Virus record (IMG/VR): IMGVR_UViG_3300045922_000503
Span: 35,250 to 99,249 of that record
DNA: 64,000 nucleotides
Direction: 5' to 3' (one strand)
Source of the DNA: a virus
Below the pieces are notes generated by a model, which saw only the letters and a program-made list of their open reading frames with translations, made no database searches and was not told the origin of the DNA. A program made the translations under genes and the position numbers. This document shows positions 1-26,609 of the stretch, in pieces. Numbering within the stretch: the stretch's first letter is position 1; the number at the start of each line of letters is the position of its first letter.

Positions 1-24
1 CAGGAAGAGGAGCGGCGGCGCATC

Positions 25-3000
25 ATGAGGTCCCTTGAGGACCCTCGCGACATGGCGAGAGACGTCGTGAACAAGACCGTCTCCGCGCTGGACCGAACGT
101 TCGCAGACCCCATCTCCGGCGGTCGGTACCGGGTAGAGCGCGTGGGAGATCTCATCGTAGAGGACATCCCTGACCCTTGGGACCACGCCGCCGTTGCTGA
201 CACCATCGCCAGGGACGGGACCTACGGGCCGCTCGTCAAGGGCAGATTCCGCATCCTCGACACCAAGGAGACGGACGCCGACGGGAACCCCAAGGTGGTC
301 AAGGAGCAGGTCATCAACCTGGCCCGAGTGCCCACGCCAACGGCAGACCGGGCCTACGTGGTAGGCGGAAAGAAGCGGGCCATGATGAGCCAGTTCCGGC
401 GACTCCCCGGCGTGTTTACCCGGACCAACGCTAAGGGGGAGACGGAGCTCGAGGCCAACCTGGACCCGTCGACTTCGTCTCAGCTCCCCAGCTTCAAGGT
501 GGTCTTGGACCGAACGACCAATGACACAGCCACCCCGTTCAAGATGCGCATCGGGACCATGAAGTCCGGGGACGCGTGGCAGGTGGCCAAGCTCCTGGGA
601 GCTGACGCGAAGGACCTGAAGGAGGCCGTGGGGGAGGAGACGGCGGCCAAGATCCTCAAGACGGACTCCAAGGATCGTTACGAGCGCGAGATGCGCAAGC
701 TGTACGGTAAGATCCATGCTGCCGACCGCGGGGGCATGGGCAAGACCAACGCCAAGCACCTACCTCTGGGGGAGATCGAGGCTGACCTCATGAAACAGTT
801 CACCACGTCCTACATCTCCCCGGAGGTCAGCAAGATGACCTTGGGGAAAGAGACGGACCGCGTGGACAAAGACGTGCTTCTCACTGGGTTCCGACGTCTC
901 CAGGCTGTGGCGTCCGGTGATGAAGAAGAAGACGACCGTGAGTCGCTCGCGCTGAAGCAGGTCATGGGGCCAGCCGACCTGATCGCGGAGTCCGTAGGCC
1001 GGTCCTCAACGGTGGAGAAGAACCGGCGCGCCATGTCGTCTAAGCTGAGGGCGCTGACTTTCAACAAGGACGCCAACCCGAACCTGGCGCAAATCGTCGG
1101 GCCACGCTTTCGCAAGGCCATCGAGGCAAAGACCTCCACCTCGATGGAGCAGCGGACTCTGGACTCCACGACCCCTATCGACACCATCGCCCAGGCTACT
1201 ACGACCACCATCCTGGGAGCAGGCGCCATCGGCAGCGAGCAGGCCATTCCTGATGAAGCCAAGCTGCTGAACAGTGGCGGCTTCGGTTTCCTGGACCCTC
1301 TTCACACGCCGGAGAGCGCGCGGTCGGGCGTGGTGCTTCACAAGCCCATGAGGACCGGGGTCAAGACAGTCGAGACGGGGAGAGCCTCTCAGCCGACGAT
1401 CAACGTCTTGACGTCCGAGTTCCTCGACCGGAGCGGGAAGCCACTGGAGCTCTCCTCTGCGGAGGTGAAGGGCAAGCCCATTGGGCTCTTCGACCAATAC
1501 GACCGGGGCGAAGACGGGAAAATCAAGCCTAAGAACCTCCCCGGCGGCGTGGTCAAGGCACTGGTGGACGGTCAGGTCAAGCTGGTTGACCCCAAAGAGA
1601 TCAGCGTGTGGGCCCAGGACGCTGGGCAGGCGTTTGACATCAACTCCAGCCTCATCCCTTTCGCCAACTCCATCTCCGGCGGGCGCGTCGGCTACTCCAG
1701 CAAGCAGACTCAACAATCACTGCCCCTGAAGTACCGGGAAGCGCCGTTGGTGCAGGTCCGCGCTCCTGGTTCCGCCAACTCGATGGAGGCCCTGCTGGGA
1801 GAAGAGGCAGGCGCGGTCAACTCTCCTGTAGACGGCACCATCGTCGACATAGTGGACACGCCCAAGAAGAGGACGGTGACCATCAAGCCGAAAGATGGGG
1901 GCAAGGACATCACCCTCTCCGTCCCCCACAACATCGCCATGCCTGGTGGCTCGCTGATGGACAGTGAGATGAAGGTCAAGCAGGGTGACTCCGTCTCAAG
2001 GGGGCAGCTCATCGCGGACTCTACCTTTACCAAGGATGGAGTCATGGCTGCAGGGACGAACCTGCGGGTCGCCTACCTCCCCTACTACACGTCGACCTTC
2101 GAGGACGCCATCGTCCTCAGCAAGTCGGCGGCTGACAAACTCACGTCCCTTCACATGTACGAAGAGAAGGTGAGGGGCAAGGGCGTGGATCTGGGCAAGA
2201 GCCTGTACGTAACTCGCACAGGTACTCCGCTGTCCAAGGAGGAGGACGATAGCATTGGGGACGACGGAATCGTCAAGGTGGGGACGCGCGTCAAGCCAGG
2301 GCAGCTGCTGGTCGCCGGCTCTCGCTCTCAAGCCATGACCGGGTCTGACATTGAGACCGCGGCTGCACTGCTGGGTCTATACGGGACCAAGAACAAGCGA
2401 GGCGTCACCACCCGAGTCGCGGAGTTTGAGCAGCGCTGGGATCACCCCGTCGAAGGGACAGTGAAGCGGGTGGAGCCCATCGTGAAGGGAGGCAAGACGG
2501 TAGGAGCCACGGTCTACGTCGAGGCGGAGGAGCCCTTCGAGGTGGGAGACAAGATCTTCGGCCGCCACGGGAACAAGGGCATCGTCACAGAGATCATTCC
2601 TGACGATAAGATGCCCAGGACGAAGGACGGCAAGGCCATGGACGTGCTGCTGAACCCGGCCGGTGTCGTGGGGCGAATCAACCCGTCTCAGAACTTCGAG
2701 AACTTTCTCGGGAAGGTCGCGGAGAAGAAGGGGTCTCCCGAGGTTGTCGACAACTGGAAGTACCAGGACAACTGGCAGCATGTGAAAGACACCCTCGAGA
2801 AGGAAGGCGTGGCCGACGCCGAGGACCTCATCGACCCTGTCACAGGACGGGTGCTGAAGTCTGTTGGCTTCGGCAACCAGTACATCCTGAAGGCCAAGCA
2901 ACAGGTGGAGCATAAGTCCTTGGCACGCGGCGTGGGGACGTTCTCTGAGTCAGGCAGCGTGGTGAAGGGTGACGACGGCGCACAGGCGCTGGGCGAGCTC

Positions 3001-6000
3001 GGAGTCTACGCGCTCCTGGCGCAGGACGCCCGTGAGTTCCTGCGGGACGCCCAGCTCAACAAGTCCGAGGACCGCCCCGAAGTGTGGGATGCTCTTCGGC
3101 GGGGGTCTCCCATCCCGCCGGCGGTGCAGCCACCTGAGCAGTTCCAACGCTTCCAGGACTACCTCACCGCCGCCGGCGTTGTCATGGAGCGCAAGGGTGA
3201 CAAGATGAAGCTCACCCGCCCCGTGACCGATGATGAGGTCAAGGCTACGGCGCAGACGTTCGGGAAGGACAACGTCCTGACGGAGCCTTGGAAAACGGTT
3301 CGGGTCAAAGCCAAGGACAGCGCGGAAGACGGGGTGTCCCGCACCGAAATCATGGAGAAAGGAGGGCTATTCGACCCGGACGCTACGGCCGGGTTCCAAG
3401 GGACGAAGTGGTCCAGGTTCAGCCTCTCCACGCCCATCCCCAACCCGACTTACGAGCAGCCCATCATGGACCTGCTCGGCATGAGCGCCAAAGAATACGA
3501 GGATCTCCGTACAGGCGTCCGAGCGGTCGAGGTAGACGGGAAGAAGCTTACAGGAGCACGTGCCGTCGACACCCTGCTGAGCAAAGTGAACGTCGACGCC
3601 ATCGAGGCAGAGACAAAGACTATCTTGGAGCAGAGCAAGGACAAGTCTGAGAGAAACCGGGCGTACCGGCTCGCCAGAAACATCAAGATGCTCAAGGAGA
3701 ACAACCTTGACCCGCAGAAGGCGTACATGCGGCAGGAGGTCCTCGTGCTGCCTGCCCGGATGAGGGGAGTCTCAAAGGACGAATCCACCGGCGATCTGGT
3801 CATCGGGGACATCAACTACCTCTACCGGGACATTGCCCTTACTGAGAAGGCTCTTCGGGATGCCAAGGCTCAGAATCTCCCGGACACGATCATCAGTGAG
3901 CTGGAAACGGGGCTCTACGAGGGGGTCCGGGCGCTCAACCAGGTGCAGAAGTCCGAGCCGCTCAGTCCCGGCTCGACCTACCAGGGCATCTTTGGCATTC
4001 TCGCAGGCCGGATCCCGACTGGCGACGGCGGAGAGGTGTCAGACGTCAAGTCCAGCTTCGCCAAGAAGAACCTACTGGAGCGCCGGCAGGTCATGAGCGC
4101 CCGGACCGTCCTGACGCCCAAGGATGACTTGGATATGGACGAGGTAGGTGTCCCCCGGCGGGTGGCCGCCGCGGTCTTTGAGCCTTTGCTCGAAGCGGAG
4201 TTCCACCGGAACCACGACATGCAGTCGACTCGTGGGCGGGAGGAATTCAAGCAGTTCCGGGATAGACTGCAGGAGTACAAGGCGACCAACACGCCCGACG
4301 AGATGATCGACAGGTACCTGGACCGGGTAGTGGCGGACAGGTACGTCGCTGTGAAGCGGGACCCTGCTCTTCACATGTTCAGCTTTCAAGGGTTCAAGCC
4401 CGTGCTCAGCCGGGAGAAGACTGTCAACTTGAACCCCCTCGTGTACGCTGGCTTCAATGCGGATAACGACGGCGACTCCGTACTTGGTCGGGTGACTTTG
4501 TTCATCGGAGACGGCGGCGAAGTCGAGCCTACGACTATGGACATCTCCTGCTTCCCCCATGTGCCGGGGTCAGAGCGCGTGTCTGAGAAGGGGACGCGGG
4601 TCTACGACGTTCCTGCTGGCATCCGGGTGCCTGCTATCCACCCGGATGGAACCGAAGTGCTGGCAGAGGTCACAGAGTGGTCTGTCCACGAGGACGTGGA
4701 CACCTACTTCGTGCGGTTGGCGTCAGGCCGGTCCATGATTGTGTCCGGAGACCATAGCCTGTGCACTCTCAGCCTGGACACCATGCAGGTGGAGAAGACT
4801 CGGCCCCAGGATGCAGTGGGTCGTGCGGTGCCCGTGCAGGTGCAGTACGATTGCGCCAACGGCGCAGAGGAGCACCCGGCGTTCGGTGCGCCGTCGTTCC
4901 TTCGCACGGATGAGGACACCGGGTGGCTGATCGGTATCATTCTGTCGCAGGGATGGATTGGGGCGGACGCCAGAGGGCGGCCTCACCGCATCCAGCTGCC
5001 GTGGCACGACGCACAGGCGCCTTCTATCCAGGGTGTCCACGACGACATCAAGCGTATCGTGAGCACGTACACCCTGAACGCGTTCACCTTCCAGGATGTC
5101 AGATGGGCACCACGGGCAGCAGCGGCGAGGCTGGGCGGGTCCAGGGCATTGATCCTGGAACCCGACCTGGCGGCTGCGGTGGCTGACGCCGTCCAGTGGC
5201 AGCCCGAGGACAGCGCGCGCGGGTATCGCTTGGCCCCGTGGGTGTTTACAGCTTCACGCTCCTTCCGGCGAGGTCTGCTGTCGGGCATCTTCGACGGCCG
5301 GGGGGGCGTCCCCCACGGCGCCCACCGGAAGGATGCAACCAGCCTGCTGATCACGATCCCGCCGGACTACCCCGACGCTCCAGGCCTTGCCCGGGACGTC
5401 GCGCTCCTCGCGGAGTCACTGGGTGCGGGGGCAACGATGACCAACAATGCCCGGGGTCAGTACCTGGTCACAATGGCCAACGTCGCCCCAGTCCTCCGCC
5501 CACGCCACCCGGAGACGAAGGAACGCGTCGATGTCATTCTGGCGTACAGCCGAAAGATTCTGGGCGATGCAGACCCCGTTCGCATTCCTGTGCCATCATC
5601 CGTCCGTAAGGACCTGATCCACGCTCTGTCCTCCTTGGGGGCTACATCCCCCCGACGACGAAAGAACGAAGAGGTGTCTGCCGCGGCAGCTATTTGGTAC
5701 TGGGCGGTCAAGAACCGCACAGCGCAGGGGGGGTGGCCGACCCGGAAGTTTCTGGCCGAGCTGTTGGAGTTCTTGCTGGAGCACGCCCAGGAGGACCAGA
5801 CTGCCCTGCTGAGAGACGCGACCAGGTGGTGTGAGTCGGTGCACCAGTCGTCTGTCTCATGGGACGAAGTGGTTGAAGTGAAGAGCCTCAACCAGAAGAC
5901 GACCATGTACGACCTCACTGTTCCCGGGCCGTACACCTTCGCCATGGCGACAGGTGCCTACGTATGGGACACGCTGGCCATTTACGCGCCGGTGAGCCCG

Positions 6001-8064
6001 GAAGCCAACCGGGAGATCCGGGACAAGATGCTGCCCAGCAAGAACCTGTTCTCTCATGCCAGCCACCAGGTTGAGCACGGTATCAGTCACGAGGCCATCC
6101 TGGGCCTCGCGCGCATGACGAAGCCGCCGACGGGAGACATGAGCAAGCCCAAAGCGAAGTTTGCCAGCGTCGCGGAGGCGGAAAAGGCATTCAACGCCAA
6201 CGAGATCGATGTTACCGATCCCATCTCTATTGGCGGGCAGAACACGACGCTTGGGAGGGCGCTTATCAACGCGGCTCTGCCGGCGGGCACCACCTTGGAG
6301 AGCCTGCAGGCGGCTGGGGTCATCTCCGCGCAGGGAGACTTCGGCATCGACAAGAAGAGCGTGGGGAATATCAACCGCTGGCTCGCTGTTGAGCATCCCA
6401 ACGCCTATTCCCAGGTGGCCAACACGCTGCGAAAGACTGGGCAGAAGTACGCCACCCTCACCGGCTCCTCCATCCGGCTCGACGACCTCAAGCCCATCGT
6501 GAAGCAGGAGCGGGAAGAGGCTGAACAGGCCATCTTCAAAGCCGTGGCGGAGATCAACAAGGAGACTGCCCCCAACTCCAAGGAGAGGAAGGACCGAACG
6601 GCAGGCGTGTTCTCAGAGTGGATCAACAAGGTCAACGCGTCCGCTAAGCCAGTCATTCATGCCGCCACGGATAACGTCAACGTCGAGCTGACGGTCACCG
6701 GCGCTCGCATCAAGCCTACCCAGCTTCAGCAGGTCATCCAAGCCCCTATGGCAATGACGGACACCAAGGGGGACGTCATTCCTTCGCCAGTGATGCGCTC
6801 ATACTCAGAAGGGCTGGATGGCGGTGGGTATATGGCATCCCTGCCTGGAGCCCGGTCCGGCACGGTCGCGAAGGTCCAGCAGGTGCAGGAGCCCGGCTAC
6901 CTCACCAAGCAGGTCGTCAACACCGTCATCGACCAGACGGTAGCAGAAGAGGACTGCGGCACCACCCGAGGGGTGGAAGTTGACCTGAGCAGGCCCAGCC
7001 AGGACACAACGAATCGCTACCTCGCTCGCGATGTGCAGGTCGGAGGGACCACGTACCCCAGAAACACGCTCCTGACGGAACAGCTCACGTCTGAGATCAG
7101 TCGACAGAGCTCTGGCGTTGCCAAGGTGCTCGTCCGGTCCCCGCTCACGTGCCAGACCAGGGGAGGGGGCGTCTGCCAGAAATGTACAGGTACCTTGCCC
7201 GGCGGTAAGGCGATGCCTGTGGGACACAACTTCGGCATCACTTCCGCTCAGGCCATTGGGGAGCGCTCCACGCAGATGATGCTGAGCCTCTTCCACGAGG
7301 GCGGAGTCTTCAACCCTAACGCGGGCACTGGCGCCCGCGATGTCTACAAGCAGGCGTCTGCTTTTCTTCGGATGCCCAAGGGGATGAACGGGATGGAGGC
7401 AGTGGTGAGCGACCGGGACGCTACGGTCACGATGGTCAAGGAGAACAAGTCCAAGGGAGGCATTGACGTTCACTTCGACTCTGGGCGCCCCATGTTCTTC
7501 AAGAACGAAGTGAAGTCTCCATCCGGCGGCGACATTCGAGACTTCCTCTCCGTGGGCAAGAAGGTGACCAAGGGGGAAATCCTGACTGAAGGCGTCGCCA
7601 ACCCCAAGGTCTTGTTGGAGGCTACAGGAGACATGGGGAGGGTGCAGAACTACATCGTCGACAACCTCGGGGAGCTCTACGCTGGCACGGGGGTCAAGCG
7701 ACGAAACGTAGAAGCGCTGGTCCGGGGCATCACGGGCACCGTAGAGGTGACGAGTGCTGGACGTAGCAACTACATGCCTGGCCAGCGTATCTCTGCGGTC
7801 GAAGCGGAGGACATGGCGGCAAAGGACCGTCAATTCAAGTTCAAGCCTGTTCTCATGGGAGTCGACGTGGCCCCTAAGGAGGCACGAGAGGACTTCCTGG
7901 CTCACCTCAACTTCAACGACATCCGCCGGCAGTTGGTCACGGGGGCAGCCATCGGCGCGGAGAGCGATCTGCACGGAACTAACCCTATCCCGGGGCTCTT
8001 CTATGGTGTAGAGTTCAATCGGCAGTTCCAGTTCGGGCCTGCCTCCACTGACGGAACCTACTGA
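25..8064 (+). CDS. rpoBC: Phage DNA-directed RNA polymerase, fused beta-beta' polypeptide, intein-containing (may extend upstream of the window)
   Basis: Beta motifs in order: QFRRLPGV, FLDPLHTPES, LIPF..S..QQSLPL, GTNLRVAYLPY..FEDAI, GDKIFGRHGNKG, LNPAGVVGRINPSQ, GAQALGELGVYAL. Then beta' motifs: GGLFD, DINYLYR, NLLERRQVMSARTV, KRDPALH, FNADNDGD, GYLTKQVV, EDCGT, VRSPLTC..VCQKC, AQAIGERSTQMMLSLFHEGG. The frame is open from base 1, so the true start may be earlier. Confidence 0.96.
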   Translation: MRSLEDPRDMARDVVNKTVSALDRTFADPISGGRYRVERVGDLIVEDIPDPWDHAAVADTIARDGTYGPLVKGRFRILDTKETDADGNPKVVKEQVINLARVPTPTADRAYVVGGKKRAMMSQFRRLPGVFTRTNAKGETELEANLDPSTSSQLPSFKVVLDRTTNDTATPFKMRIGTMKSGDAWQVAKLLGADAKDLKEAVGEETAAKILKTDSKDRYEREMRKLYGKIHAADRGGMGKTNAKHLPLGEIEADLMKQFTTSYISPEVSKMTLGKETDRVDKDVLLTGFRRLQAVASGDEEEDDRESLALKQVMGPADLIAESVGRSSTVEKNRRAMSSKLRALTFNKDANPNLAQIVGPRFRKAIEAKTSTSMEQRTLDSTTPIDTIAQATTTTILGAGAIGSEQAIPDEAKLLNSGGFGFLDPLHTPESARSGVVLHKPMRTGVKTVETGRASQPTINVLTSEFLDRSGKPLELSSAEVKGKPIGLFDQYDRGEDGKIKPKNLPGGVVKALVDGQVKLVDPKEISVWAQDAGQAFDINSSLIPFANSISGGRVGYSSKQTQQSLPLKYREAPLVQVRAPGSANSMEALLGEEAGAVNSPVDGTIVDIVDTPKKRTVTIKPKDGGKDITLSVPHNIAMPGGSLMDSEMKVKQGDSVSRGQLIADSTFTKDGVMAAGTNLRVAYLPYYTSTFEDAIVLSKSAADKLTSLHMYEEKVRGKGVDLGKSLYVTRTGTPLSKEEDDSIGDDGIVKVGTRVKPGQLLVAGSRSQAMTGSDIETAAALLGLYGTKNKRGVTTRVAEFEQRWDHPVEGTVKRVEPIVKGGKTVGATVYVEAEEPFEVGDKIFGRHGNKGIVTEIIPDDKMPRTKDGKAMDVLLNPAGVVGRINPSQNFENFLGKVAEKKGSPEVVDNWKYQDNWQHVKDTLEKEGVADAEDLIDPVTGRVLKSVGFGNQYILKAKQQVEHKSLARGVGTFSESGSVVKGDDGAQALGELGVYALLAQDAREFLRDAQLNKSEDRPEVWDALRRGSPIPPAVQPPEQFQRFQDYLTAAGVVMERKGDKMKLTRPVTDDEVKATAQTFGKDNVLTEPWKTVRVKAKDSAEDGVSRTEIMEKGGLFDPDATAGFQGTKWSRFSLSTPIPNPTYEQPIMDLLGMSAKEYEDLRTGVRAVEVDGKKLTGARAVDTLLSKVNVDAIEAETKTILEQSKDKSERNRAYRLARNIKMLKENNLDPQKAYMRQEVLVLPARMRGVSKDESTGDLVIGDINYLYRDIALTEKALRDAKAQNLPDTIISELETGLYEGVRALNQVQKSEPLSPGSTYQGIFGILAGRIPTGDGGEVSDVKSSFAKKNLLERRQVMSARTVLTPKDDLDMDEVGVPRRVAAAVFEPLLEAEFHRNHDMQSTRGREEFKQFRDRLQEYKATNTPDEMIDRYLDRVVADRYVAVKRDPALHMFSFQGFKPVLSREKTVNLNPLVYAGFNADNDGDSVLGRVTLFIGDGGEVEPTTMDISCFPHVPGSERVSEKGTRVYDVPAGIRVPAIHPDGTEVLAEVTEWSVHEDVDTYFVRLASGRSMIVSGDHSLCTLSLDTMQVEKTRPQDAVGRAVPVQVQYDCANGAEEHPAFGAPSFLRTDEDTGWLIGIILSQGWIGADARGRPHRIQLPWHDAQAPSIQGVHDDIKRIVSTYTLNAFTFQDVRWAPRAAAARLGGSRALILEPDLAAAVADAVQWQPEDSARGYRLAPWVFTASRSFRRGLLSGIFDGRGGVPHGAHRKDATSLLITIPPDYPDAPGLARDVALLAESLGAGATMTNNARGQYLVTMANVAPVLRPRHPETKERVDVILAYSRKILGDADPVRIPVPSSVRKDLIHALSSLGATSPRRRKNEEVSAAAAIWYWAVKNRTAQGGWPTRKFLAELLEFLLEHAQEDQTALLRDATRWCESVHQSSVSWDEVVEVKSLNQKTTMYDLTVPGPYTFAMATGAYVWDTLAIYAPVSPEANREIRDKMLPSKNLFSHASHQVEHGISHEAILGLARMTKPPTGDMSKPKAKFASVAEAEKAFNANEIDVTDPISIGGQNTTLGRALINAALPAGTTLESLQAAGVISAQGDFGIDKKSVGNINRWLAVEHPNAYSQVANTLRKTGQKYATLTGSSIRLDDLKPIVKQEREEAEQAIFKAVAEINKETAPNSKERKDRTAGVFSEWINKVNASAKPVIHAATDNVNVELTVTGARIKPTQLQQVIQAPMAMTDTKGDVIPSPVMRSYSEGLDGGGYMASLPGARSGTVAKVQQVQEPGYLTKQVVNTVIDQTVAEEDCGTTRGVEVDLSRPSQDTTNRYLARDVQVGGTTYPRNTLLTEQLTSEISRQSSGVAKVLVRSPLTCQTRGGGVCQKCTGTLPGGKAMPVGHNFGITSAQAIGERSTQMMLSLFHEGGVFNPNAGTGARDVYKQASAFLRMPKGMNGMEAVVSDRDATVTMVKENKSKGGIDVHFDSGRPMFFKNEVKSPSGGDIRDFLSVGKKVTKGEILTEGVANPKVLLEATGDMGRVQNYIVDNLGELYAGTGVKRRNVEALVRGITGTVEVTSAGRSNYMPGQRISAVEAEDMAAKDRQFKFKPVLMGVDVAPKEAREDFLAHLNFNDIRRQLVTGAAIGAESDLHGTNPIPGLFYGVEFNRQFQFGPASTDGTY
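4477..5970 (+). mobile_element. Intein (498 aa) with degenerate LAGLIDADG-like homing endonuclease, inserted directly after the RNAP catalytic motif
   Basis: Removing S(VLG)...(VW)D rejoins NADNDGD|TLAIYAP, matching canonical NADFDGD-QMAVHVP. Block B SGDH; block F/G WDEVVEV..MYDLTVPGPYTF..GAYVWD; endonuclease-like GWLIGIILSQG and GLLSGIFDGRG. Confidence 0.9.
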
Positions 8065-8081
8065 CCCGCAAGGAAATCACG

Positions 8082-9839: not shown

Positions 9840-10217
9840 ATGACTCCTTCTCTCCGTCTCTACACGTTTCAGAAGATGTCGCTCTCCCACGACGTGGTAA
9901 CTGGAGGATCGATTGGGGGATCGATTGGGCTGGTCGGCGGCGGCCTCGGCGGGGCACTAATCGGGCAGATCGGGGTGGCCGAGGCTAGAGATAGGTTGCA
10001 GCGCAGCGCAGACGAGCTTGCACGGGTAAAAGCTTCTCCTGTCCCTTCTTTTGCGGCACTAGACTGGGCAAAGAAGGAGCTTATGGACTCTGAAGACTGG
10101 CTGAAAACAGCCCGTAGGTATCGACGGGCCGGCATCGGCGCCGCTGGCATTGGCGCTGGACTCGTGGGCGCCGGCGTGGGCGCCCTAGCGGGCGCCCTTT
10201 CTAGGAAAACCCCATGA
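9840..10217 (+). CDS. Glycine-zipper protein with K-x-S leader
   Basis: Leader MTPSLRLYTFQKMS; two long GxxxG repeats. Confidence 0.72.
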   Translation: MTPSLRLYTFQKMSLSHDVVTGGSIGGSIGLVGGGLGGALIGQIGVAEARDRLQRSADELARVKASPVPSFAALDWAKKELMDSEDWLKTARRYRRAGIGAAGIGAGLVGAGVGALAGALSRKTP

Positions 10218-11767
10218 CCTCTGCACTCCAGCGCCACATCCTGGCCAAGCTCTCCGAGGTGGTCACCGATCTGCAGCCTCATCAGTTGAGAGTTCGGGAG
10301 CGCCTTCGTGAGTCCCCAGGGTTGGTCATCGCCCATGGTCTAGGGTCAGGAAAGACGCTTTCCGCCTTAGCCATCGCGGATGATGTAGGGGGGGACGCCA
10401 CCTTTATCGTCCCGGCGTCCTTGAAGTCGAACCTGGATAAGGAAAGGCGCAGGCACCTGCAGGACGAGAACTTCATCGCGGCTATAGACTCACTGCAGCG
10501 CACAGGTTTGCAGCGGGGGGACAACCTCCCTGGAGGAGATGTCCTTGTCGTCGATGAGGCTCACCGCATCCGGGAGCAAGGGGAGGCTCAATCGGCGCTG
10601 CGCCGCCGTAGGAGAGACTACCGCAAGGCTGCACTCCTGACCGCCACTCCTGTGTTCAATCGACCGTCCGACATCGCACCGTTGGTCAACATCGCCGCAG
10701 GGTCGCGAATCCTCCCAGAAGGCCAGGAGTTCGACGCGCAGTATGTTAGGGAGGAGGTCGTCAAGCCTTCTCTTTGGGGTAAAATAAGAGGCGTCGCGCC
10801 CGGCACCCGCAAGACCCTGACCAACAGGCAAGATCTCCGGCAGAGGCTTCGGCAGTGGGTGGACTACCACGCCAACTCGACGGAAGGTTTCCCGGAGCGG
10901 GTGGATGAGGAGGTGCTGGTGCCACTGACAGGCAAGCAGCGACAGACCTACGACGCCGTCATGGGGCAAGCACCAGCCTGGGTGCAGTACAAGGTCAGAA
11001 GTGGGCTTCCGCCATCGAAATCAGAAGCGAAGCAGCTGAACGCATTCCTATCTGCAGCGAGACAGACAGCCACATCCGAGTTCGGCTTCAACACGGGTCT
11101 GACAGCTGTCGAGGCCGCGCAGCGGTCCGGGAAGATTACGGCAGCAGTCAACCGGCTGCAGAAGCAGATCCAAGACGACCCCACTCACAAGTCCGTCATC
11201 TACAGCAACTTCCTGGACGCCGGCCTAGAGCCCACCGCCGCCGCGCTAGACCAAGCTGGTATTCCTTTTGCCCGGTTCACGGGGAAGGAGAAGCCCAAAG
11301 ATCGGGATGCTGCAATCAAGGCGTACAACGAAGGAAGGGTCGCAGCCTTGCTGGTGTCCAGCGCAGGAGGCGAGGGCCTGGACCTCAAGGGAACTCGCTC
11401 TATCAAGGTGCTGGAGCCCCACTGGAATGATCCTAAGCTGGACCAGGTGATCGGCCGAGGCATCCGGTTCGGTAGCCACGCGCACCTACCGGAGGACCAA
11501 CGAAACGTGGTGGTAGAGCGGTACCTGTCCCGCAACCCCGATACGCTCGGGACTCGAACGGGCAGGTTCTTCCATGGGATCGGGAAGGCGGTCGGCCTCA
11601 CGTCTGGGGAGTACCGAGGGCCTTTGACTGTTGATCAGTACCTCAGTCAGCTGAGCGCGGAGAAGAAGGCACTGACAGATGACTTGACTAGCATTCTGGC
11701 CGAAGGCACGTCAGACTACGAAAGGTACCGTGCCGCCCGGGCCGCCGTCGAGAGGGTGTCGCCGTGA
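10214..11767 (+). CDS. SNF2-family / NPH-I (D6/D11)-like SF2 helicase-ATPase carrying the K-x-S leader
   Basis: LQPHQ, HGLGSGKT (Walker A), VVDEAH, LTATP, SAGGEGLDL, EPHWN, QVIGRGIRFGSH; N-terminus MTSALQRHILAKLS. Confidence 0.9.
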   Translation: MTSALQRHILAKLSEVVTDLQPHQLRVRERLRESPGLVIAHGLGSGKTLSALAIADDVGGDATFIVPASLKSNLDKERRRHLQDENFIAAIDSLQRTGLQRGDNLPGGDVLVVDEAHRIREQGEAQSALRRRRRDYRKAALLTATPVFNRPSDIAPLVNIAAGSRILPEGQEFDAQYVREEVVKPSLWGKIRGVAPGTRKTLTNRQDLRQRLRQWVDYHANSTEGFPERVDEEVLVPLTGKQRQTYDAVMGQAPAWVQYKVRSGLPPSKSEAKQLNAFLSAARQTATSEFGFNTGLTAVEAAQRSGKITAAVNRLQKQIQDDPTHKSVIYSNFLDAGLEPTAAALDQAGIPFARFTGKEKPKDRDAAIKAYNEGRVAALLVSSAGGEGLDLKGTRSIKVLEPHWNDPKLDQVIGRGIRFGSHAHLPEDQRNVVVERYLSRNPDTLGTRTGRFFHGIGKAVGLTSGEYRGPLTVDQYLSQLSAEKKALTDDLTSILAEGTSDYERYRAARAAVERVSP

Positions 11768-18731: not shown

Positions 18732-20426
18732 GTGAGAACCAGAATCAGAGTGGCTAAGATCCTAGACGTCGACCCGGCGAAGTTCACCGCTACGATTCAG
18801 TACTTGGGCTCCGAGGGTGTGGTGGGAGATGTCCCCATCAGTTCCCCCTTCCTCGACATCGAGGGAGGGGCGCACAGCGGGGGGATGCCGAGGGCTGGAT
18901 CCTTCTACTTGGTCGTGTTTCCGGAGAACGCTTCTCAGCCGGTGGTGTGGGGAGGATACCCGCTCCCCACCCCCGATGTCGGGCAGGCAGAGGGGATGGA
19001 AGACCGCGAAAGCGCCGCAGGCCCCCGAGACGACTTCTCCAGCTCCAGGGCTTTCATGGCTCCAGGGGACCAAGGCCTGTTCGGGTATGATGGAGCCAAG
19101 GTGGCACTCAGGTCTTCTGGCGTGCTAGAGCTATTCATGGATGAGATGTGCTGGACCCGGTACTTCATGGACCAGCACGCCATCCGGAGCATGGCCCGAG
19201 CGGTGATGCACTCCGGATGGTGGGGAGCTGTCGAGGGCTTCGTCCTCGACGACAACCTGGCGGAAGACGCAGAAGGGGCGCCCACGGGGGCGAGAGTCAT
19301 CATCAAGAACAGGACTCAGGGCGCAGCGCACGTTCTCATGGAGGCAGGGTCCATCCCGGACGAGGCTGGCGTGCAGCTCGCTGGCGTACCCGTACAGGAT
19401 CAGGGGACTCTGTCCGAGGTTTGCATGCGTCTTCTGGTGTACGACCAGGAGACCGCTGACGCCTACCATGACATGGGGCAGTTCCCGCCGGCTGAGCAGG
19501 CTCGGGTCATGATCAAGGTCGACCAGGAGGGCAACTCCCAGGTGCGCCTCATGGGCATGCTTGACCTCATGGTGAAGAGGCTCCTGCTCTCTGTAGAGGA
19601 ACGCGTCGTGGCTGAAGTGCACGGGGCCACGCAGATGATTCTCAACGGGTTGGACATTGAGTCATCCGCGGATGCCCGTGTCGTTTCCGACACCGGCATC
19701 CTTCTCAAGAGCCGGGGGGACGTCCGCATCAGGGCGAGGCGCTTCATCGTCGAGGCGCTCAACGACATCATCGCAACAGAGGGTGCCTGGGGCGTGGACG
19801 CCGGGGGAGCAGTGAGCATCGCCGGCGCCAGCGGGCTCAACCTGCGCTCGGGCCGGGATCTGACGGTCACTGCAGCAGGAGACCGTGCGGACTCCACGGC
19901 AGGGCGCCTCGATGTGCTGGTGTCAGGCCAGGGGCCGCCGTCGTGGAAGACTACAGACACCCCTACGCACAGGACTAGGCTCAGAGAGGGCAAGATGGTG
20001 CTGGAGACTCACAAGGGCTCCGTGGAAATGAAGCTCAACCCCTCCGGGTCTCCGGCCGCGCCGCCCCTATCCGCCATCCGCATCGTCGGGGATCCGACCC
20101 AGCCACACCTGTTAGGGCGTGTTGAGGTCTTGGCCGGCATCCTGGGCACGGGGCTCGTCGCAGATGTCTCCGGCCTCGTCAGCGTCGGCAACGTTGCCGG
20201 AGGCGTACTCATTGACCCTACAGGTCGGGTGCAGCTGGGACTCAGACAAGGCGTGGTGGGGAACGTCGTGACCAGCACCAGCCATCTGGACTACATGACT
20301 GGGCTTCCGCTGAGAGGTGCCCCCGAGGTCGTAGTGGTCAGTGCTCTTCCGGGCATCCCTGCACCCGGCGTCCCGGTAGTCCCGCCGCTCCCCTTCATCC
20401 CTACTCCTGACCTGATCGGCGCATGA
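18732..20426 (+). CDS. Baseplate central spike / gpV-gp5-like protein
   Basis: N-terminal OB-fold-like pattern (KILDVDP..ATIQY..DVPISSP..GMPRAGS.YLVVF); beta-helix-like repeats; C-terminal HLDYMTGLP apex-like segment; SD AGGAG. Confidence 0.6.
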   Translation: MRTRIRVAKILDVDPAKFTATIQYLGSEGVVGDVPISSPFLDIEGGAHSGGMPRAGSFYLVVFPENASQPVVWGGYPLPTPDVGQAEGMEDRESAAGPRDDFSSSRAFMAPGDQGLFGYDGAKVALRSSGVLELFMDEMCWTRYFMDQHAIRSMARAVMHSGWWGAVEGFVLDDNLAEDAEGAPTGARVIIKNRTQGAAHVLMEAGSIPDEAGVQLAGVPVQDQGTLSEVCMRLLVYDQETADAYHDMGQFPPAEQARVMIKVDQEGNSQVRLMGMLDLMVKRLLLSVEERVVAEVHGATQMILNGLDIESSADARVVSDTGILLKSRGDVRIRARRFIVEALNDIIATEGAWGVDAGGAVSIAGASGLNLRSGRDLTVTAAGDRADSTAGRLDVLVSGQGPPSWKTTDTPTHRTRLREGKMVLETHKGSVEMKLNPSGSPAAPPLSAIRIVGDPTQPHLLGRVEVLAGILGTGLVADVSGLVSVGNVAGGVLIDPTGRVQLGLRQGVVGNVVTSTSHLDYMTGLPLRGAPEVVVVSALPGIPAPGVPVVPPLPFIPTPDLIGA

Positions 20427-23400
20427 CAGCACCACTTCGATGGGATCAGGCCGGCGGTGACATCGGCAACCCAGCTGCCCTGCGGGCCGTCATCGGCGGC
20501 CTGCAACAGGCGAGGGACGCGCTTGAAGCGTCCCGCATCCCTGCTCAGATTGTCGCCACGCTGGCAGAGGTGCAGTACTGGCTCGACCTTGCCATGACGC
20601 TGGCCTCGGGGCAGCGGGTCATAGGCATTGCACTGGGTCAGATCCTGATCGACCTCGTTCGGCCCTACCTCAGCGACGGTGCGTACATCCTGGCTCACAC
20701 CAATGTCGCGGATGTCATTCAGCAGCGGGGACTCAGGACTCTGTTGCAGCACGGGCAGGATCCCTTTGCAACCGCAGGGGACCCGCCGCCCTACGCAGGC
20801 GATGTGTTCACAGACCCGCAGTCCCGCCTTCTTGCTGGCGTGCGTGGCAGTTTCTCCTTCGCTCGACAGGTGCGTCGCGTCTCATCTCCCTTGGCACGCA
20901 ACCCTGTTGTCCAGGAGATCCTGACCACCCTAGCCGGAGAGCCACAGCAGAACTTTGACACCTGGCTGCAGGACTTTCTGAACGCGTTCTACGACGAAGC
21001 TGACCCCCTGCGCCCGGTGCTGTACGAGAGCACTGGTCCTCTGACTCCCGGGCAGAGATTCGAGGTTGGTCCCCCGGAGTTCGGCGGGTATATCTTCACC
21101 GTGGAGACAACGGACCCTACTGTGCTGTTTCGCACACTCGGGCAACTGAGGGACTTGTTCCGGACGAGCTCCCCGTCTTTTGTCAACCCGATCTCCATCA
21201 TTCCGCTGGGGGAGGACGAGGAGTACGACTGGAGGCGGGACCTTGCGAACTTCGCCATGTTCAGAGGGCCAGCAAGAGAGCGAATCCGCATGGTGAGCTC
21301 CACGCCGGACTTCCAGCGCCTCTCCACCGCCGACCTGATGCCGCTGGTCGACAGATTCGCCAACCTGCTCAACATCGCGGCTGGATTCGTCGGACCTCCG
21401 CTGCTGGTCAACGTCAACCTCGACTCCATCATCCAGAGTCTGACAGAAACGTACCTGCGCATCCTTCGTATGCTCGACCTGATCATCAGCACCCTGACGC
21501 AGCTTCAAATGCTGCTGTCTGTGCCAGGGGTCAGCATGCTTCGGATCCCGCTCTCCCGCGCCAGCCTCGACAACTTCGTCGCCGACATCTACCGAGCGTC
21601 AAGCACCAGAGACGATCTAGTCCGAGTCGAGGCAACTCCTCCGCTGTTCCGTGAAGGGGCCGTAGACGACCCTACCGTTGAGAACCCTACCGAGTTGGCA
21701 ATCGCCGGTATGCCAGTCGCGTTCGCCAACAGGGCTGTCGACAACTTCCGTCGCACCTGGGCCCGAGGGACGCTCATCCGGGACCGCCGTGTAGAGCAGG
21801 TCCACGGGTCCTATGTGGGCCGGGGCACCATCATGCGACGAAGCGAGGCCCAACGCATTGCAGCTGCCGTGCCCGAGTTTCGGTTCGGGCCCGTCCACAA
21901 CCTGCTCGTGGGGGGTTTGGGAGTCTTCTACCAGCGAGGCCCCCTGTCTCAGTTCCTTGACGGCCTCTTCAACAGAAGCCGGCGCGGGGGAGGTACGGAA
22001 GAGGACCCAGCTTCACCTGAAGACATTGTCGACGAGCTTCGGCAAGTGCAGTCCGCGCTGTCCTCCGCAGTCACTGCTTCTATCCCCCGGCTTAGCGCGG
22101 CCCCGACAGCTCCTGCAGGGTCGCGGGCCAGCGTGGCGGCAGCGCGGGGGCCTGGCAGGGATTCCTTCAGGCTCGATGACCAAGAGACAGACAGGTTCTC
22201 CGACTCGGGCCGCGCCGCCGGCGCGGAGGACGGAGCGGCAGCAGCACAGTTATCCTCCCCTTTGGGGGTGGTGTCGAGGCCTGCCGTAGACACGGCAGTC
22301 TCGGGGGCAGGCACTGGCTTCAGGCGTTGGGGAGCTGTGGCGGTAGACGCTGCCTCAGGGGCAGACCCCGGCACAGACGCCAACGTGGTCGTTGCGGGGT
22401 CTTGGCGACGAGTCGGCAGGATGCTGCCTGAGCGCCCAGATCTTGAGGTTCCGGCTGTCACTGGAGACGGCCCCCCTCTCGGGGCTCCGGGAGGACCCGA
22501 CGACGTTCCTGCGTCGGGGCGGGTCGCGTCGCGCCTGTGGAAACACAGCGCTGTCTCTCAGGTCATCAGCGTGACCGGGGCCAGCTTGGACGGCCCGGTG
22601 CTGACCTGCCCTGGGTTTGGCCCTGCGTTCAGTATGCCGGACAACCCTGGCGCGGGGGATTACCTTTTGGCGGTAGATCTGCGGCTTCGTATTGAGGCGA
22701 CAGCGGAAGAAGTCCGCGTCCGTACGTCGTTGGTCAAGGTGCTTGGCGCCGATCGGTACCTGCTGTCCCACTGCCCGCCCTCTCCCCCTCTCGCCACGCT
22801 GCTCGGGATCACAGTCGTCGAGCGGGCCGACAACTTCCACCCCGCAGACGAGTACCTGGAGGTCGACGCAAGCGGTATGTCTCCAGACGACGTGCTGGCG
22901 GTCTCCGCGTGCGGCCGAAAGGTTCCTCGACCTGGCTTTGCCACCGCCGCTGCCGCAGAAGATGATCGAATCGGCGTGCTCTCCGCTTCCATCATCGTGG
23001 GGACGTACGTCGCCGCAACTTCTCCGGCACTTCCTTCTTCAATGACAGGCCCCTTGGGAGTGCTGGCAGGGCCAGTGAACTCCCCCACGCAGTCTCTGTC
23101 GACATCTTGGGCGACGGGGTCCAAGGTCCGAAGCTGGTCACCAGACGGAGAGCCATCCCCCAGCACAGACCGGCGCATCGCTGCCTCGCAGACGCCTATC
23201 ACGCAGTGGCGGTTCTCTGGAAACTGGGCAAGCGCCATGGCAGTGCTTCCCCTGGCGGGAGGAGTGGTCCTTGGAGCTGGATCTCCCGCCGTGAACGCGC
23301 TGGTCTATGCCCCCTCGAACCCGGCCACTGGCAACCTCTCCACGCTCGGGGCGGTAGTAACTGTTCGGGTGGGCGGGGAGACAACGTGGTCTGGTCCTCT

Positions 23401-24346
23401 TGGGGAAGCGCTGGACGTAGTCCCCCGGACGTCGCATGGGTTCGCTGCGGAGGACCCGGTGACAGTCCTTCAGTGGAAGAGCAGTCTGCCCTTCGACCTT
23501 GCAGGGGCGACCGCTACGGTATGGCTGCCGTCGCGAGACGCCCTGACAGCCACCCCAGGCGCACTCCTCGCCGTCGTGTCGGCCGAGGTAGGGGTGGAGG
23601 TCGAGGAGTTTCGCTCGAGCCAGACTAACCAGGCCGCGTGGGAGCGGCTCCCCTCTACGGTCACGGTAGGGGCGGTGCCTCCGACCCCAGAAGCGGCTGT
23701 CGCCGCCGGGGCTGCCCACAGGCACGCAGACCGGCTCTGGGTGCCAGCTGGCGGCCTTCGAGGTACAGACGTGTTTGCCGGGTCCCCTGCAGGCAATGGC
23801 CGGAGATGGTCCGTGTGCGTCCGGTCCCCAGCGCACTCCGCATCATGGCCGGCAGGCACCCACAGGGTCCTGACCTTGCAGGACAGCTACGTGGACGTGC
23901 AGATCCCTCAGCAGGGAGCCCCTGTCTTCCGCCTAGGAGTTGATGAGAGCGCGGTCTTGTTCCAGGAGATGGAAGTGCCGCTTCGCCCACAGGACTACCT
24001 GCACGTAGGCGTTCGCACAGGCCTGGCAGATCAGGGCCAGTACCGCTGGGGCCTGTTCCTGATGGTGTCAGACCGCACAGACCCGGAGGATGAAGACGCG
24101 AACGTTCTCTGGCAGGCGGAGGTGCTGTCGGACGAGACGCAGAGCGAGCCTATCCTCTCAAGAGCGTGCGAGGGCGGTTCCGTCCTGATGGGAGCGCTGT
24201 ACCCTCTGGGGGAGGACCCGGACGTCAGTGGACACCCTGCCACCTCGCTGGTATCGTCAGACGCGACGCCGGCACTCTCTCATAGCAGCCGGTCTGCCCT
24301 TAGCTGGGTCGTCTACGCAACCCGTACTGTGATCCTCGAGGACTGA
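20423..24346 (+). CDS. Large putative tail/baseplate structural protein
   Basis: ATGA-coupled to the spike gene; beta-strand-rich C-terminal half; very Lys-poor like the other tail proteins. Confidence 0.5.
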   Translation: MTAPLRWDQAGGDIGNPAALRAVIGGLQQARDALEASRIPAQIVATLAEVQYWLDLAMTLASGQRVIGIALGQILIDLVRPYLSDGAYILAHTNVADVIQQRGLRTLLQHGQDPFATAGDPPPYAGDVFTDPQSRLLAGVRGSFSFARQVRRVSSPLARNPVVQEILTTLAGEPQQNFDTWLQDFLNAFYDEADPLRPVLYESTGPLTPGQRFEVGPPEFGGYIFTVETTDPTVLFRTLGQLRDLFRTSSPSFVNPISIIPLGEDEEYDWRRDLANFAMFRGPARERIRMVSSTPDFQRLSTADLMPLVDRFANLLNIAAGFVGPPLLVNVNLDSIIQSLTETYLRILRMLDLIISTLTQLQMLLSVPGVSMLRIPLSRASLDNFVADIYRASSTRDDLVRVEATPPLFREGAVDDPTVENPTELAIAGMPVAFANRAVDNFRRTWARGTLIRDRRVEQVHGSYVGRGTIMRRSEAQRIAAAVPEFRFGPVHNLLVGGLGVFYQRGPLSQFLDGLFNRSRRGGGTEEDPASPEDIVDELRQVQSALSSAVTASIPRLSAAPTAPAGSRASVAAARGPGRDSFRLDDQETDRFSDSGRAAGAEDGAAAAQLSSPLGVVSRPAVDTAVSGAGTGFRRWGAVAVDAASGADPGTDANVVVAGSWRRVGRMLPERPDLEVPAVTGDGPPLGAPGGPDDVPASGRVASRLWKHSAVSQVISVTGASLDGPVLTCPGFGPAFSMPDNPGAGDYLLAVDLRLRIEATAEEVRVRTSLVKVLGADRYLLSHCPPSPPLATLLGITVVERADNFHPADEYLEVDASGMSPDDVLAVSACGRKVPRPGFATAAAAEDDRIGVLSASIIVGTYVAATSPALPSSMTGPLGVLAGPVNSPTQSLSTSWATGSKVRSWSPDGEPSPSTDRRIAASQTPITQWRFSGNWASAMAVLPLAGGVVLGAGSPAVNALVYAPSNPATGNLSTLGAVVTVRVGGETTWSGPLGEALDVVPRTSHGFAAEDPVTVLQWKSSLPFDLAGATATVWLPSRDALTATPGALLAVVSAEVGVEVEEFRSSQTNQAAWERLPSTVTVGAVPPTPEAAVAAGAAHRHADRLWVPAGGLRGTDVFAGSPAGNGRRWSVCVRSPAHSASWPAGTHRVLTLQDSYVDVQIPQQGAPVFRLGVDESAVLFQEMEVPLRPQDYLHVGVRTGLADQGQYRWGLFLMVSDRTDPEDEDANVLWQAEVLSDETQSEPILSRACEGGSVLMGALYPLGEDPDVSGHPATSLVSSDATPALSHSSRSALSWVVYATRTVILED

Positions 24347-24348
24347 CA

Positions 24349-26607
24349 ATGCTCAGGCTCCGTGACTACGCCGCATCCTTTCTCCCCCGCACGAAGACGT
24401 CTCAGTACCACCGCGTCGACATGGGGGAGAGCGTCGAATCCTGGGGGCAAAGGGCGGGGGAATCGCTCCGACGCCAGCACCCGTGGACGGGCAAGTACGA
24501 TGTTCGGGTCGAGATTACGACCACGGACGACGTGGCCAACGCCATCGGGTACTTCTACCTTCTGCCCCGGCAGATCCCCCCGAATATGATCGGCATGGAC
24601 ACCCTGCCATCCGTGCGGGTGCCCATCATCATCGCAGACCGCAAACTTCTCCCTCTGGACACCTACATTCACCAAGAGACGTTCCTTCCGCTCAGTGAAG
24701 ACCGGGTGCGCTCGATTCTGTCCACTGGTGACATCTTCATGCCGGTCACCCACCACGAGGTCGAGCAGATCCGCGACGCAGAGCTCGGCCTGCGCGGGGT
24801 ATCTTCCTCTTCCGTCTTCGGAGGAGCGGGCGGCATGCTGCTGGGGCACTCCGTCAAGTCGGCGTCCGTGAGCATGGAGACCGCCGAGCGGCTTGGAATG
24901 GGGCACTTGCTGGCCTGGGCGCGAGAGCTTCCATCCAGCCACGTGCTCAACGACGTCCTGACGCCGGAGGAGGCGGGCAACCCATGGGTCCGCGCGCAGG
25001 TGCACGCCAAGACAAGCTCGGCGGCTCAGAACATTCCTTTCTCCGCAGAAGACAGCATTCGGGTCTGGGCGCGCAACGCCAACAGCCCCAGCCGGATGCA
25101 GCCGCTGCTGGAGAAGATGAGCCAGCTTCGTGGCTATGAGGTCCGGCGCTCTGGCGTCGACGGAGTGATGTCGTACCGGCCCATCTGGGCAGTGTCCCCA
25201 GTCGACGGCAAAGCGGGCTACGGGGACTGGACCAAGACCTCCATGGCCCGACTTTCCGAGTTGGTCGGACCCAGCTCGCTGGAGCGCGCCCTACCCGTGC
25301 TGGCGGAAATCGGCCAGACCACCATCCCGTGCCCTGAATCGGACACGACTACCCCCCTGCGTGACCTCACTGTTCAGCTGCTGCAGCACGAGCGCGACGC
25401 GGACCTCTGGCTCAAGACGTCGGCGGTAGCCATTCCCGAATCCTCTATCCGCCGGGGAGACGTAGTCCTGTTCGAGGAGGGAGAGTCGAAGTTCTTTCCC
25501 GGCATCAAGATCAGCCAGGTGTTCGGCAACGGGACGTCAGGCGCGACTTACGTCCTAGACGTCTCGACAGAGACCCCTGTCCTACGTGAGGCCCACAGTA
25601 CACTGCGCCCGCTGCTGGTTGCTGGCACAGCCAAGCTCTCCGCCATTCACGCCCCAGCCGGCACCCTTCTAGGTTACAGAAAGGACACGGGTGAGTTGGT
25701 AGCAGCTTTCCTGGACCCCCGCGTGATGACCAAGACATCGTCAGGAGCCACGGCAGCCCTGAAGGACGGCGCTGGGTCTGTGACTCTGACAGGCCCCAGT
25801 AGTGGAGTCATTCAGGCAGGAGGTTGGACGCTGCACGTTGATGACGTCTGTGACGTGGTGTCTGTCCCGTCGACCAAGACGTCGGCCTTCGCGGACAAGT
25901 ACCAAGGGCTGACGCATGCGCTGGCCCGCGCGAAGTCCTCTGCGGCACTGCTCGCCGAGGTACAGCCAAAGCTGCGCTTCATGACCTTCAACGCGAAGGA
26001 CGGCACGTTCAACTTCGACACCGACCTGCCCCTAGAGTACCTCTCTCGCGGAAGCGTGAAGGGGTCCAGTGCCCCCGAAGCAGCGGCGACGCTGCTCTGT
26101 ATGGGCATGGGCGCGCACGATGCCCTGGCCTGCGTCAAGCTCGCTGCCGAAGAAGGCAGGAGCCTTTTCCGGTTCTCAGACGCCCCCCTGCGAGCGCAGG
26201 AGGTTCTGCGGAATGGCGACGCGGCCCTTCGAGCGGTCATCGAGACAGCCGAGAGCGTGGCGGAGAAAATCAGCATGGCTCGGGGCGCTGCTACGTCGGC
26301 TACTCTTCAAGCTCTGGCCGTCATGGCGACCTATGACAGCAGCGTGCTCGCGAAGACGAGCTCCACCGGCTCTGGAACGTCACTGGACGTATTGTTGTCT
26401 CTGGACTTCCTGAGCAGGGACAACATTCTGAAGTTCGCCAACTTTCTGCCTATCATCGAGCAGTGCCAGGGGTACCTCTGCGCCCTGCGCATCGCCAGTC
26501 GACTTGGCCTTGACGAAGTCTCCGAATCAGCGTGTACCAGTGCCATTGACTCCATGGAGCCCATCATCTTCGGGCTCAGGTCGATTAGGCACGTACTTCG
26601 GAGCTGA
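24349..26607 (+). CDS. Putative head/core protein rich in K-x-S sites
   Basis: About 13 K-x-S/A sites (KTSQ, KTSS x3, KMSQ, KTSM, KTSA x2, KLSA, KSSA, KISM); helical C-terminal domain. Confidence 0.65.
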   Translation: MLRLRDYAASFLPRTKTSQYHRVDMGESVESWGQRAGESLRRQHPWTGKYDVRVEITTTDDVANAIGYFYLLPRQIPPNMIGMDTLPSVRVPIIIADRKLLPLDTYIHQETFLPLSEDRVRSILSTGDIFMPVTHHEVEQIRDAELGLRGVSSSSVFGGAGGMLLGHSVKSASVSMETAERLGMGHLLAWARELPSSHVLNDVLTPEEAGNPWVRAQVHAKTSSAAQNIPFSAEDSIRVWARNANSPSRMQPLLEKMSQLRGYEVRRSGVDGVMSYRPIWAVSPVDGKAGYGDWTKTSMARLSELVGPSSLERALPVLAEIGQTTIPCPESDTTTPLRDLTVQLLQHERDADLWLKTSAVAIPESSIRRGDVVLFEEGESKFFPGIKISQVFGNGTSGATYVLDVSTETPVLREAHSTLRPLLVAGTAKLSAIHAPAGTLLGYRKDTGELVAAFLDPRVMTKTSSGATAALKDGAGSVTLTGPSSGVIQAGGWTLHVDDVCDVVSVPSTKTSAFADKYQGLTHALARAKSSAALLAEVQPKLRFMTFNAKDGTFNFDTDLPLEYLSRGSVKGSSAPEAAATLLCMGMGAHDALACVKLAAEEGRSLFRFSDAPLRAQEVLRNGDAALRAVIETAESVAEKISMARGAATSATLQALAVMATYDSSVLAKTSSTGSGTSLDVLLSLDFLSRDNILKFANFLPIIEQCQGYLCALRIASRLGLDEVSESACTSAIDSMEPIIFGLRSIRHVLRS

Positions 26608-26609
26608 GG

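Follow-up and report, generated by a model that had tools for sequence, protein, structure and literature searches.

Fusions of the two largest subunits of bacterial RNA polymerase (RNAP), in which the C-terminus of beta runs into the N-terminus of beta-prime, exist in Helicobacter and Wolbachia; in both, the fused chain is part of a cellular core enzyme that has retained alpha and omega. The gamma and beta-prime subunits of cyanobacteria and plastids are a split rather than a fusion, again in cellular enzymes with alpha and omega. Among phages, the phiKZ-type RNAPs have no alpha, omega or recognisable sigma, and one set is borne in the virion (PMC7598289). The phiKZ/AR9-type enzymes consist of four or five polypeptides, with two sets per genome. 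Closest to the gene described here are the RNAPs of Salmonella phage Arash and of Vibrio phages D69, D148 and D181, in which beta continues into the start of beta-prime; in Arash and D69, beta-prime is cut in two, so that one gene encodes beta with the front half of beta-prime (approximately 1525 amino acids, aa) and another the back half (approximately 606 aa). Here we analyze a stretch of 64,000 nucleotides (nt) from a virus (the window; positions 35,250 to 99,249 of IMG/VR record IMGVR_UViG_3300045922_000503), which opens with a gene encoding beta and the whole of beta-prime in one chain.

The gene belongs to the same family as the Arash-type RNAPs (phmmer E-values of 1.5e-122 for Arash gp206 and 6.5e-37 for gp216) and has its joint at the same place. 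It differs from them in keeping beta-prime whole, in being only ~27-30% identical and placed in a separate clade, and in having an intein, while Arash gp206 is annotated without one. In contrast to the Helicobacter and Wolbachia fusions, it is phage-borne and much shorter (2245 aa after the predicted splicing), lacks the N-terminal zinc ribbon, and belongs to a family with no alpha or omega gene. With the phiKZ/AR9-type RNAPs it shares being a phage-encoded relative of beta and beta-prime, but it is a single chain from a family with one RNAP per genome, and its relatives encode a sigma-70-like protein.

The source record is 99,249 bp long with a GC content of ~62%, and comes from a hot-spring or microbial-mat metagenome; the window is its last 64 kb. 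The contig is ~55% complete according to CheckV, with no more than 35 kb of sequence ahead of the RNAP gene. The open reading frame (ORF) at positions 25 to 8064 on the plus strand has 2679 open codons (P0001, whose residue numbers we use throughout). The frame is still open 5' of the window, where an ATG at position -167, preceded by a Shine-Dalgarno-like site (GGAGAGG), is the best candidate start. Since the public gene call for the locus (P0002) has 2743 aa, the window removes the first 64 codons. A preliminary description of this DNA had given the ORF correctly, but missed both the upstream start and a 498-aa intein inside it.

That description had also read beta and then beta-prime, in order, in the one frame, and the Pfam scan agrees. 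The order of domains in P0001 is Rpb2_6, Rpb1_1, Rpb1_2, intein splicing domain, Rpb1_3 and Rpb1_5. Rpb2 domain 6 (PF00562) was found at aa 670-974 (E = 2.4e-44; 152 bits versus a cut-off of 23.4), Rpb1 domain 2 (PF00623) at aa 1354-1485 (58 bits) and Rpb1 domain 5 at aa 2263-2581 (58 bits); Rpb1 domain 1 gave only a weak match, and Rpb1 domain 3, with 22 bits, fell under its cut-off. The Mg-binding motif NADNDGD (aa 1478-1484) joins the next beta-prime segment only once the intein is removed. The second zinc site keeps its four Cys residues (aa 2311, 2376, 2384 and 2387). The segment corresponding to the N-terminal zinc ribbon of beta-prime is missing by comparison with Salmonella rpoC; the chain has no Cys at all ahead of the intein, so that this ribbon is absent. 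Identity of the chain to bacterial beta and beta-prime is ~25-27%.

The preliminary description had placed the joint near nt 3160-3250, based on two strings that we located at aa 1043 and 1062 (nt 3151 and 3208), and alignment to Salmonella rpoB and rpoC, in agreement, puts it at nt ~3150-3240. The end of Salmonella beta aligned to our PEQFQRFQDYLTAAGVVMERKGDK, and Salmonella beta-prime IKIALASPDMIRSW aligned to our MKLTRPVTDDEVKAT. Compared with the Salmonella subunits, ~17 N-terminal residues of beta-prime are missing at the joint and there is no linker. Consistently, bacterial beta chains from the PDB align up to ~aa 1072-1089, which is their own C-terminus, and E. coli beta-prime residue 179 aligns with ~aa 1173. 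The structure prediction that the preliminary description had called for was run on a 785-aa segment spanning the joint, using a family alignment of 51 sequences, and gave an ordered fold (mean predicted local distance difference test score, pLDDT, of 86.7; predicted template modelling score of 0.75). The joint was modelled as one beta-hairpin with a pLDDT of ~90, formed by a VVMERK strand, a GD turn and a KMKLTRP strand, and the model superposes both on bacterial beta-prime chains and on beta chains. Its best structural match was a cyanobacterial gamma subunit (9dvs_D), which shows that beta-prime tolerates a cut roughly where the Arash-type phages have theirs. We conclude that beta runs straight into beta-prime in one bacterial-type two-barrel enzyme.

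The preliminary description had called cellular fusions rare; in the family of this phage gene, fusion is the usual state. Some 20 single-chain relatives (2058-2764 aa, from contigs of up to 210 kb) came from a word-indexed search. A scan for related loci with a single RNAP protein as query found none, while a scan of IMG/VR with a family alignment succeeded, identifying at least 516 stretches that encode relatives. One frame of at least 2000 aa covers the whole match in nearly all of the best 80 loci, and the joint is unbroken in 78 of these. A HMMER search with the joint-spanning segment against 1.84 billion representatives yielded 1002 matches at E <= 1e-30. The top 150 representatives all had E < 1e-86; ~130 of them cross the joint without a break, and lengths are mostly 2000-3400 aa. 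The family comprises hundreds of clusters at 50% identity. The relative P0003 is 80% identical and lies on a 76-kb contig. In the FastTree phylogeny, the split forms of Arash and D69 group in a clade of their own, separate from the fully fused ones, and P0001 pairs with P0003 inside a well-supported fused subclade of eight members. This tree does not give the order in which the full fusion and the Arash-type split arose, because its bacterial outgroup is a single long branch. Relatives have genomes of ~180-200 kb, and all seven near-complete ones carry exactly one RNAP. Megablast of the RNAP gene against cultured phages gave no match. No description of the architecture was found in open-access papers or bioRxiv, and two reviews of jumbo-phage RNAPs mention neither full fusion nor an intein. 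The gene is thus a normal member of a very large phage RNAP family whose architecture we have not found described in the literature searched.

The explanation that we consider probable is that the chain is the sole, fused RNAP of the phage, that it is spliced from an intein-containing precursor, uses a sigma factor, works without alpha and omega, and travels in the virion. The polymerase would be translated as a precursor of 2743 aa, in which a class-1-type intein, between the last Asp of NADNDGD and the next Thr, would block activity until removed. Splicing would start with an attack by Ser1, continue with transfer to Thr+1 and end with the terminal Asp cyclising, to give a chain of 2245 aa. 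The covalent fusion may replace the role of alpha and omega in assembly (their absence is an observation, the role a proposal). A phage sigma-70-like factor would recognise the promoters, and the polymerase and its SNF2 partner, by analogy with Arash, would be packed in the virion and injected to start transcription. A bolder version, which we put forward tentatively and think rather unlikely, is that the spliced 2245-aa chain and one sigma-70-like protein make up a complete virion-borne holoenzyme of two polypeptides that needs neither alpha nor omega, with the Asp-terminated intein in the Mg loop acting as a slow or condition-dependent timer of maturation.

Carriage in the virion is probable by comparison with Arash. 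In Arash virions, gp206 gave the most spectra of any protein, gp216 and gp217 are likewise abundant, and gp10 was also detected (PMC10585845). The RNAP and SNF2 genes of our phage are homologues of gp206/gp216 and of gp217, respectively, and the gp217 gene adjoins the gene for the C-terminal part of beta-prime in Arash. Besides the SNF2 ATPase, Arash shares portal, terminase and structural homologues with our phage. Several points weigh on the other side. The argument comes from one cultured phage, whose RNAP has the low identity given above and is cut differently. The portal homologue (776 aa; E = 1e-23 to the Arash portal) lies upstream of the window on the minus strand, at genome positions 11128-13509 (L004:11125-13455), in inverted orientation and with 22 kb between it and the RNAP gene, while in Arash, in Vibrio D69 and in the closest large relative, G005, the portal gene immediately precedes that for RNAP. 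This position indicates a rearrangement in the present lineage, and with the portal displaced, packaging is argued from a distant relative. It is therefore possible, though we doubt it, that the RNAP is made after infection and stays out of the virion, with the early genes transcribed by host RNAP and the phage sigma-like factor perhaps working for the host enzyme. Sigma factors that divert host RNAP are encoded by many large phages lacking an RNAP of their own (PMC7598289), and virion presence is known for Arash only, outside this phage and clade. Against a purely intracellular enzyme, the homologues of our RNAP and SNF2 ATPase are top matches in the Arash virion mass spectrometry, the RNAP gene lies within or beside structural and packaging genes in Arash, in G005 and here, and there is a single RNAP per genome.

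The partner subunits were searched for with Pfam profiles. No alpha (PF01000, PF01193) was found on the contig or in 12 family genomes, seven of which are at least 90% complete, and no omega (PF01192) on the contig or in the near-complete relatives; the same searches matched in 14/14 cellular genomes used as controls. Host alpha could still be used by the enzyme, which counts against a fully alpha-free polymerase. Nor did Pfam and PHROGs reveal a candidate accessory subunit among ~25 flanking ORFs, including three of ~330 aa that immediately precede the RNAP gene and two just downstream.

For sigma the picture is different. The preliminary description had recognised neither alpha nor sigma nearby and had proposed that assembly and promoter recognition might be independent of both; the absence of alpha has stood, and sigma-independence is not supported. 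Homologues of the sigma-like protein gp10 of Arash were identified in all four complete fused relatives (E = 1e-16 to 1e-28) and in G005 (E = 2.3e-15), and all five proteins pass the Pfam threshold for Sigma70_r3. The family is thus not sigma-less. The region of the beta-prime clamp helices in our chain aligns with Thermus and E. coli beta-prime, and in bacteria this region is the docking site of sigma. Promoters are therefore most likely recognised via a phage sigma-70-like factor. The contig itself speaks less favourably: no sigma was found on it by four methods (Pfam regions 2 and 4, Arash gp10, a profile of the five members, and a genome search with the alignment behind that profile). An 11.6-bit match to sigma region 4 inside the SNF2 gene was rejected as noise. 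In three of the four complete relatives and in G005, the sigma gene is ~41-67 kb upstream of the RNAP gene; with a contig ~55% complete that holds only 35 kb upstream, the missing sigma gene carries no conclusion. An attempt to predict its position from the gene order of G005 failed for lack of collinearity ahead of the RNAP gene. A self-sufficient polymerase with neither alpha nor a sigma-like factor, which reads promoters alone or via an unrelated factor in the manner of phiKZ/AR9, would agree with the lack of detectable alpha, omega and sigma on the 99-kb contig, and such phage enzymes exist (PMC7598289). We consider it unlikely, given the sigma-70-like genes of the relatives, the incompleteness of the contig and the conserved clamp-helix region.

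The intein interrupts the catalytic center. In P0001, the insert of 498 aa (aa 1485-1982, nt 4477-5970) follows NADNDGD directly. In the intein-free relatives P0004 and P0006, NADNDGD runs on without interruption into T(L/M)AVFAP, while P0001, P0003 and P0005 have ~500 extra residues exactly between NADNDGD and T. The AlphaFold model of the insert (pLDDT of 75.7) was matched by Foldseek to PI-PfuI (1dq3, E = 8.5e-19), the TliVMA intein (7qss), PI-TkoII and PI-SceI (1vde); judging from this predicted fold, the insert is a full-length LAGLIDADG intein. Block F of the insert also aligns with the Ssp DnaB mini-intein. Residues for splicing are kept: Ser1, the block B motif S-G-D-H, the block F Asp (M-Y-D-L) and Thr+1. 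While PI-PfuI, the TliVMA intein and PI-SceI have the same fold, our intein differs from them in ending Trp-Asp instead of His-Asn, in having lost the catalytic acids of the endonuclease, and in its site at the beta-prime Mg motif. Inteins typically occupy highly conserved catalytic sites (PMC1635734); the RNAP inteins recorded in the same work are in second-largest subunits only, and the beta-prime Mg motif is not among the sites.

Some features of the insert are less favourable to splicing. Pfam Intein_splicing gave 32.7 bits on the isolated insert, short of the cut-off of 35.8, and the scan of the whole chain likewise gave a sub-threshold splicing domain (aa 1552-1973). The intein ends Trp-Asp, with no penultimate His and no terminal Asn, and position 13 of block F is Tyr instead of His. 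Splicing itself we infer from the residues, the fold and the intein-free alleles. The Trp-Asp ending is, however, conserved in the lineage of this intein. Class 1 splicing is the route taken by inteins that end in Asp, Gln or Glu, some inteins do without the penultimate His, and Asp or Gln is known to cyclise at the terminus where Asn is usual, a workable variant that fits ours (PMC4031507). That the insert is an intein that has decayed and lost the ability to splice, with the polymerase inactive or the insert tolerated as an extra domain, would agree with the Trp-Asp ending, the apparently dead endonuclease and the low Pfam score. We judge it very improbable: this intein lineage has kept the Trp-Asp end, a Ser or Cys as first residue and the nucleophile at +1 across RNAPs that are only ~30% identical, the frame is intact over 8 kb, and the Mg-binding loop that the insert interrupts belongs to what is the only RNAP in all seven near-complete family genomes, so that splicing would have to be required for function.

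Inserts at this site were found in at least 15 of 84 family sequences, and at least three intein lineages occupy it. The lineage of our intein has Ser or Cys at position 1, ends Trp-Asp or Gln-Asp, and is followed by Thr, Cys or Ser at +1; the second is of the canonical His-Asn type, and the third starts QQIN and ends ILSN. Inteins of the QQIN/QQLN type (L015:2309-3817, L017:9903-11462 and aa 1387-1936 of P0021) have no Cys, Ser or Thr at position 1 and no block B His (DDDERAV), and their terminal Asn is followed by Thr. They may use a splicing route other than class 1. The presence of inteins is patchy among close relatives on the tree, as expected of a mobile element. In our lineage the intein is probably no longer mobile, judging from its LAGLIDADG motifs: the two catalytic acids are replaced by Gln and Arg in P0001 and by Thr and Cys in P0003, which indicates that the endonuclease is probably dead while splicing is retained. 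The Asp/Asp pair is kept in nine of the 12 other inteins that share the site, the exceptions being two QQIN-type inteins (Asn at motif 1) and the one in L020 (Glu at motif 2).

We also observed departures from the standard arrangement in related loci. In L033 (frame 9704-18733), an intein of the Trp-Asp type sits two residues downstream, between ...DGDAM and SVYLPITP. Its terminal Asp must here be an intein residue, which fixes the boundaries of the intein, and the shifted insertion places one intein lineage at two neighbouring positions of the catalytic loop. L018:14180-14203, which lies in the complete 178-kb genome G002, is identical in sequence to L011:4320-4343; in both, the N-extein reads NADFDGN instead of NADFDGD directly before an intein of the Trp-Asp type (CVDG...VVWD, followed by T). 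Canonical splicing would leave the third Mg-binding Asp as Asn in the only RNAP of that phage. Further large inserts, possibly additional inteins, were seen in the RNAPs of L017 (frame 4734-13415) and L016 (frame 9743-18700): ~341 aa in beta (near P0004 aa 433-464) and ~367 aa in the C-terminal part of beta-prime (near P0004 aa 1930-1954).

A second assembly, from the probable source sample, was identical to the contig over nt 2800-6300. The comparison used contigs and not raw reads; the DNA occurs in two runs of equal size, which probably represent a double filing of the source sample, and no RNA run is listed among the sequencing runs containing it. This identity excludes an assembler artefact and nothing more; the unbroken joint in 78 of 80 loci supports the fusion more strongly. 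The idea that the fusion is an artefact, be it rpoB and rpoC joined by a frameshift or mis-assembly, or a misclassified contig with a cellular rpoBC, can draw on the read-level data being limited to contigs from the probable source sample, but is next to inconceivable in view of the joint being unbroken across nearly all of those loci and ~130 of the top 150 representative clusters, of the terminase, portal and phage structural homologues on the contig, and of the low identity to bacterial beta and beta-prime.

The same homologues, on an IMG/VR virus record, bear out the attribution of the gene to a phage in the preliminary description; the large terminase matched phrog_675 with E = 9e-36 (window 28877-30766). 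Most other large ORFs of the contig had no family match in Pfam or PHROGs, and there are no tRNA genes in the window (positions 1-64000). Between the RNAP gene and the conserved block downstream lie ~10.5 kb (window 8065-18630) with no counterpart at that place in G005; they hold the SNF2 ATPase and about a dozen ORFs without family match. Directly upstream of the RNAP gene, three consecutive ORFs on the same strand (328, 335 and 325 aa; L005:14041-17015, genome 32041-35015) had no Pfam match. Also upstream of the window, the contig encodes an exonuclease subunit of DNA polymerase and a B12-dependent ribonucleotide reductase of class II whose C-terminus carries a TSCPD domain (genome 14788-18135, in L004). 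An intein was considered for the over-long reductase gene and rejected, the gene encoding a class II enzyme with the TSCPD domain. Features of the window are collected in the table.

Table. Features of the RNAP gene and its downstream neighbours, in window coordinates.
Feature	Position	Strand	Remarks
Fused beta-beta-prime RNAP gene	1..8064	+	5' end cut by window; likely ATG 167 nt upstream of position 1; stop 8062-8064
Beta-like part	25..3207	+	P0001 aa 1 to ~1061; includes Rpb2 domain 6
Beta/beta-prime joint	3151..3240	+	Hairpin model, alignment
Beta-prime N-terminal part (end of N-extein)	3208..4476	+	Clamp-helix region and Rpb1 domain 2; ends with NADNDGD (nt 4456-4476)
Intein (predicted), HINT splicing and LAGLIDADG endonuclease domains	4477..5970	+	498 aa; Ser1 ... 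Trp-Asp, then Thr+1
LAGLIDADG motif 1 of intein	4921..4962	+	Catalytic acid replaced by Gln (LSQGW; relatives GDGW)
LAGLIDADG motif 2 of intein	5266..5310	+	Catalytic acid replaced by Arg (FDGRGG; relatives LDTDGS)
Beta-prime C-terminal part (C-extein)	5971..8061	+	Starts TLAIYAPVS; Rpb1 domains 3 and 5; four zinc-site Cys (nt 6955-7185)
SNF2-family ATPase	10214..11767	+	Homologue of Arash gp217, E = 7.5e-93
Four large genes, no assigned function (564, 1307, 752 and 375 aa)	18732..27737	+	Homologues directly follow RNAP in G005
Large terminase subunit	28877..30766	+	phrog_675
Homologue of Arash structural protein gp222	35342..36946	+	Match to Arash

If our reading is right, a natural single-chain RNAP of bacterial type that works without alpha and omega would show in minimal form how the two catalytic barrels assemble, and its compactness would suit structural and synthetic work. 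The fused family contrasts with the phiKZ-type phages, which split their subunits instead. The intein site in the Mg loop, shared by at least three lineages, is a clear case of mobile elements hitting the most conserved point of an enzyme, and the inteins ending Trp-Asp provide a natural set of Asp-cyclising inteins to study.

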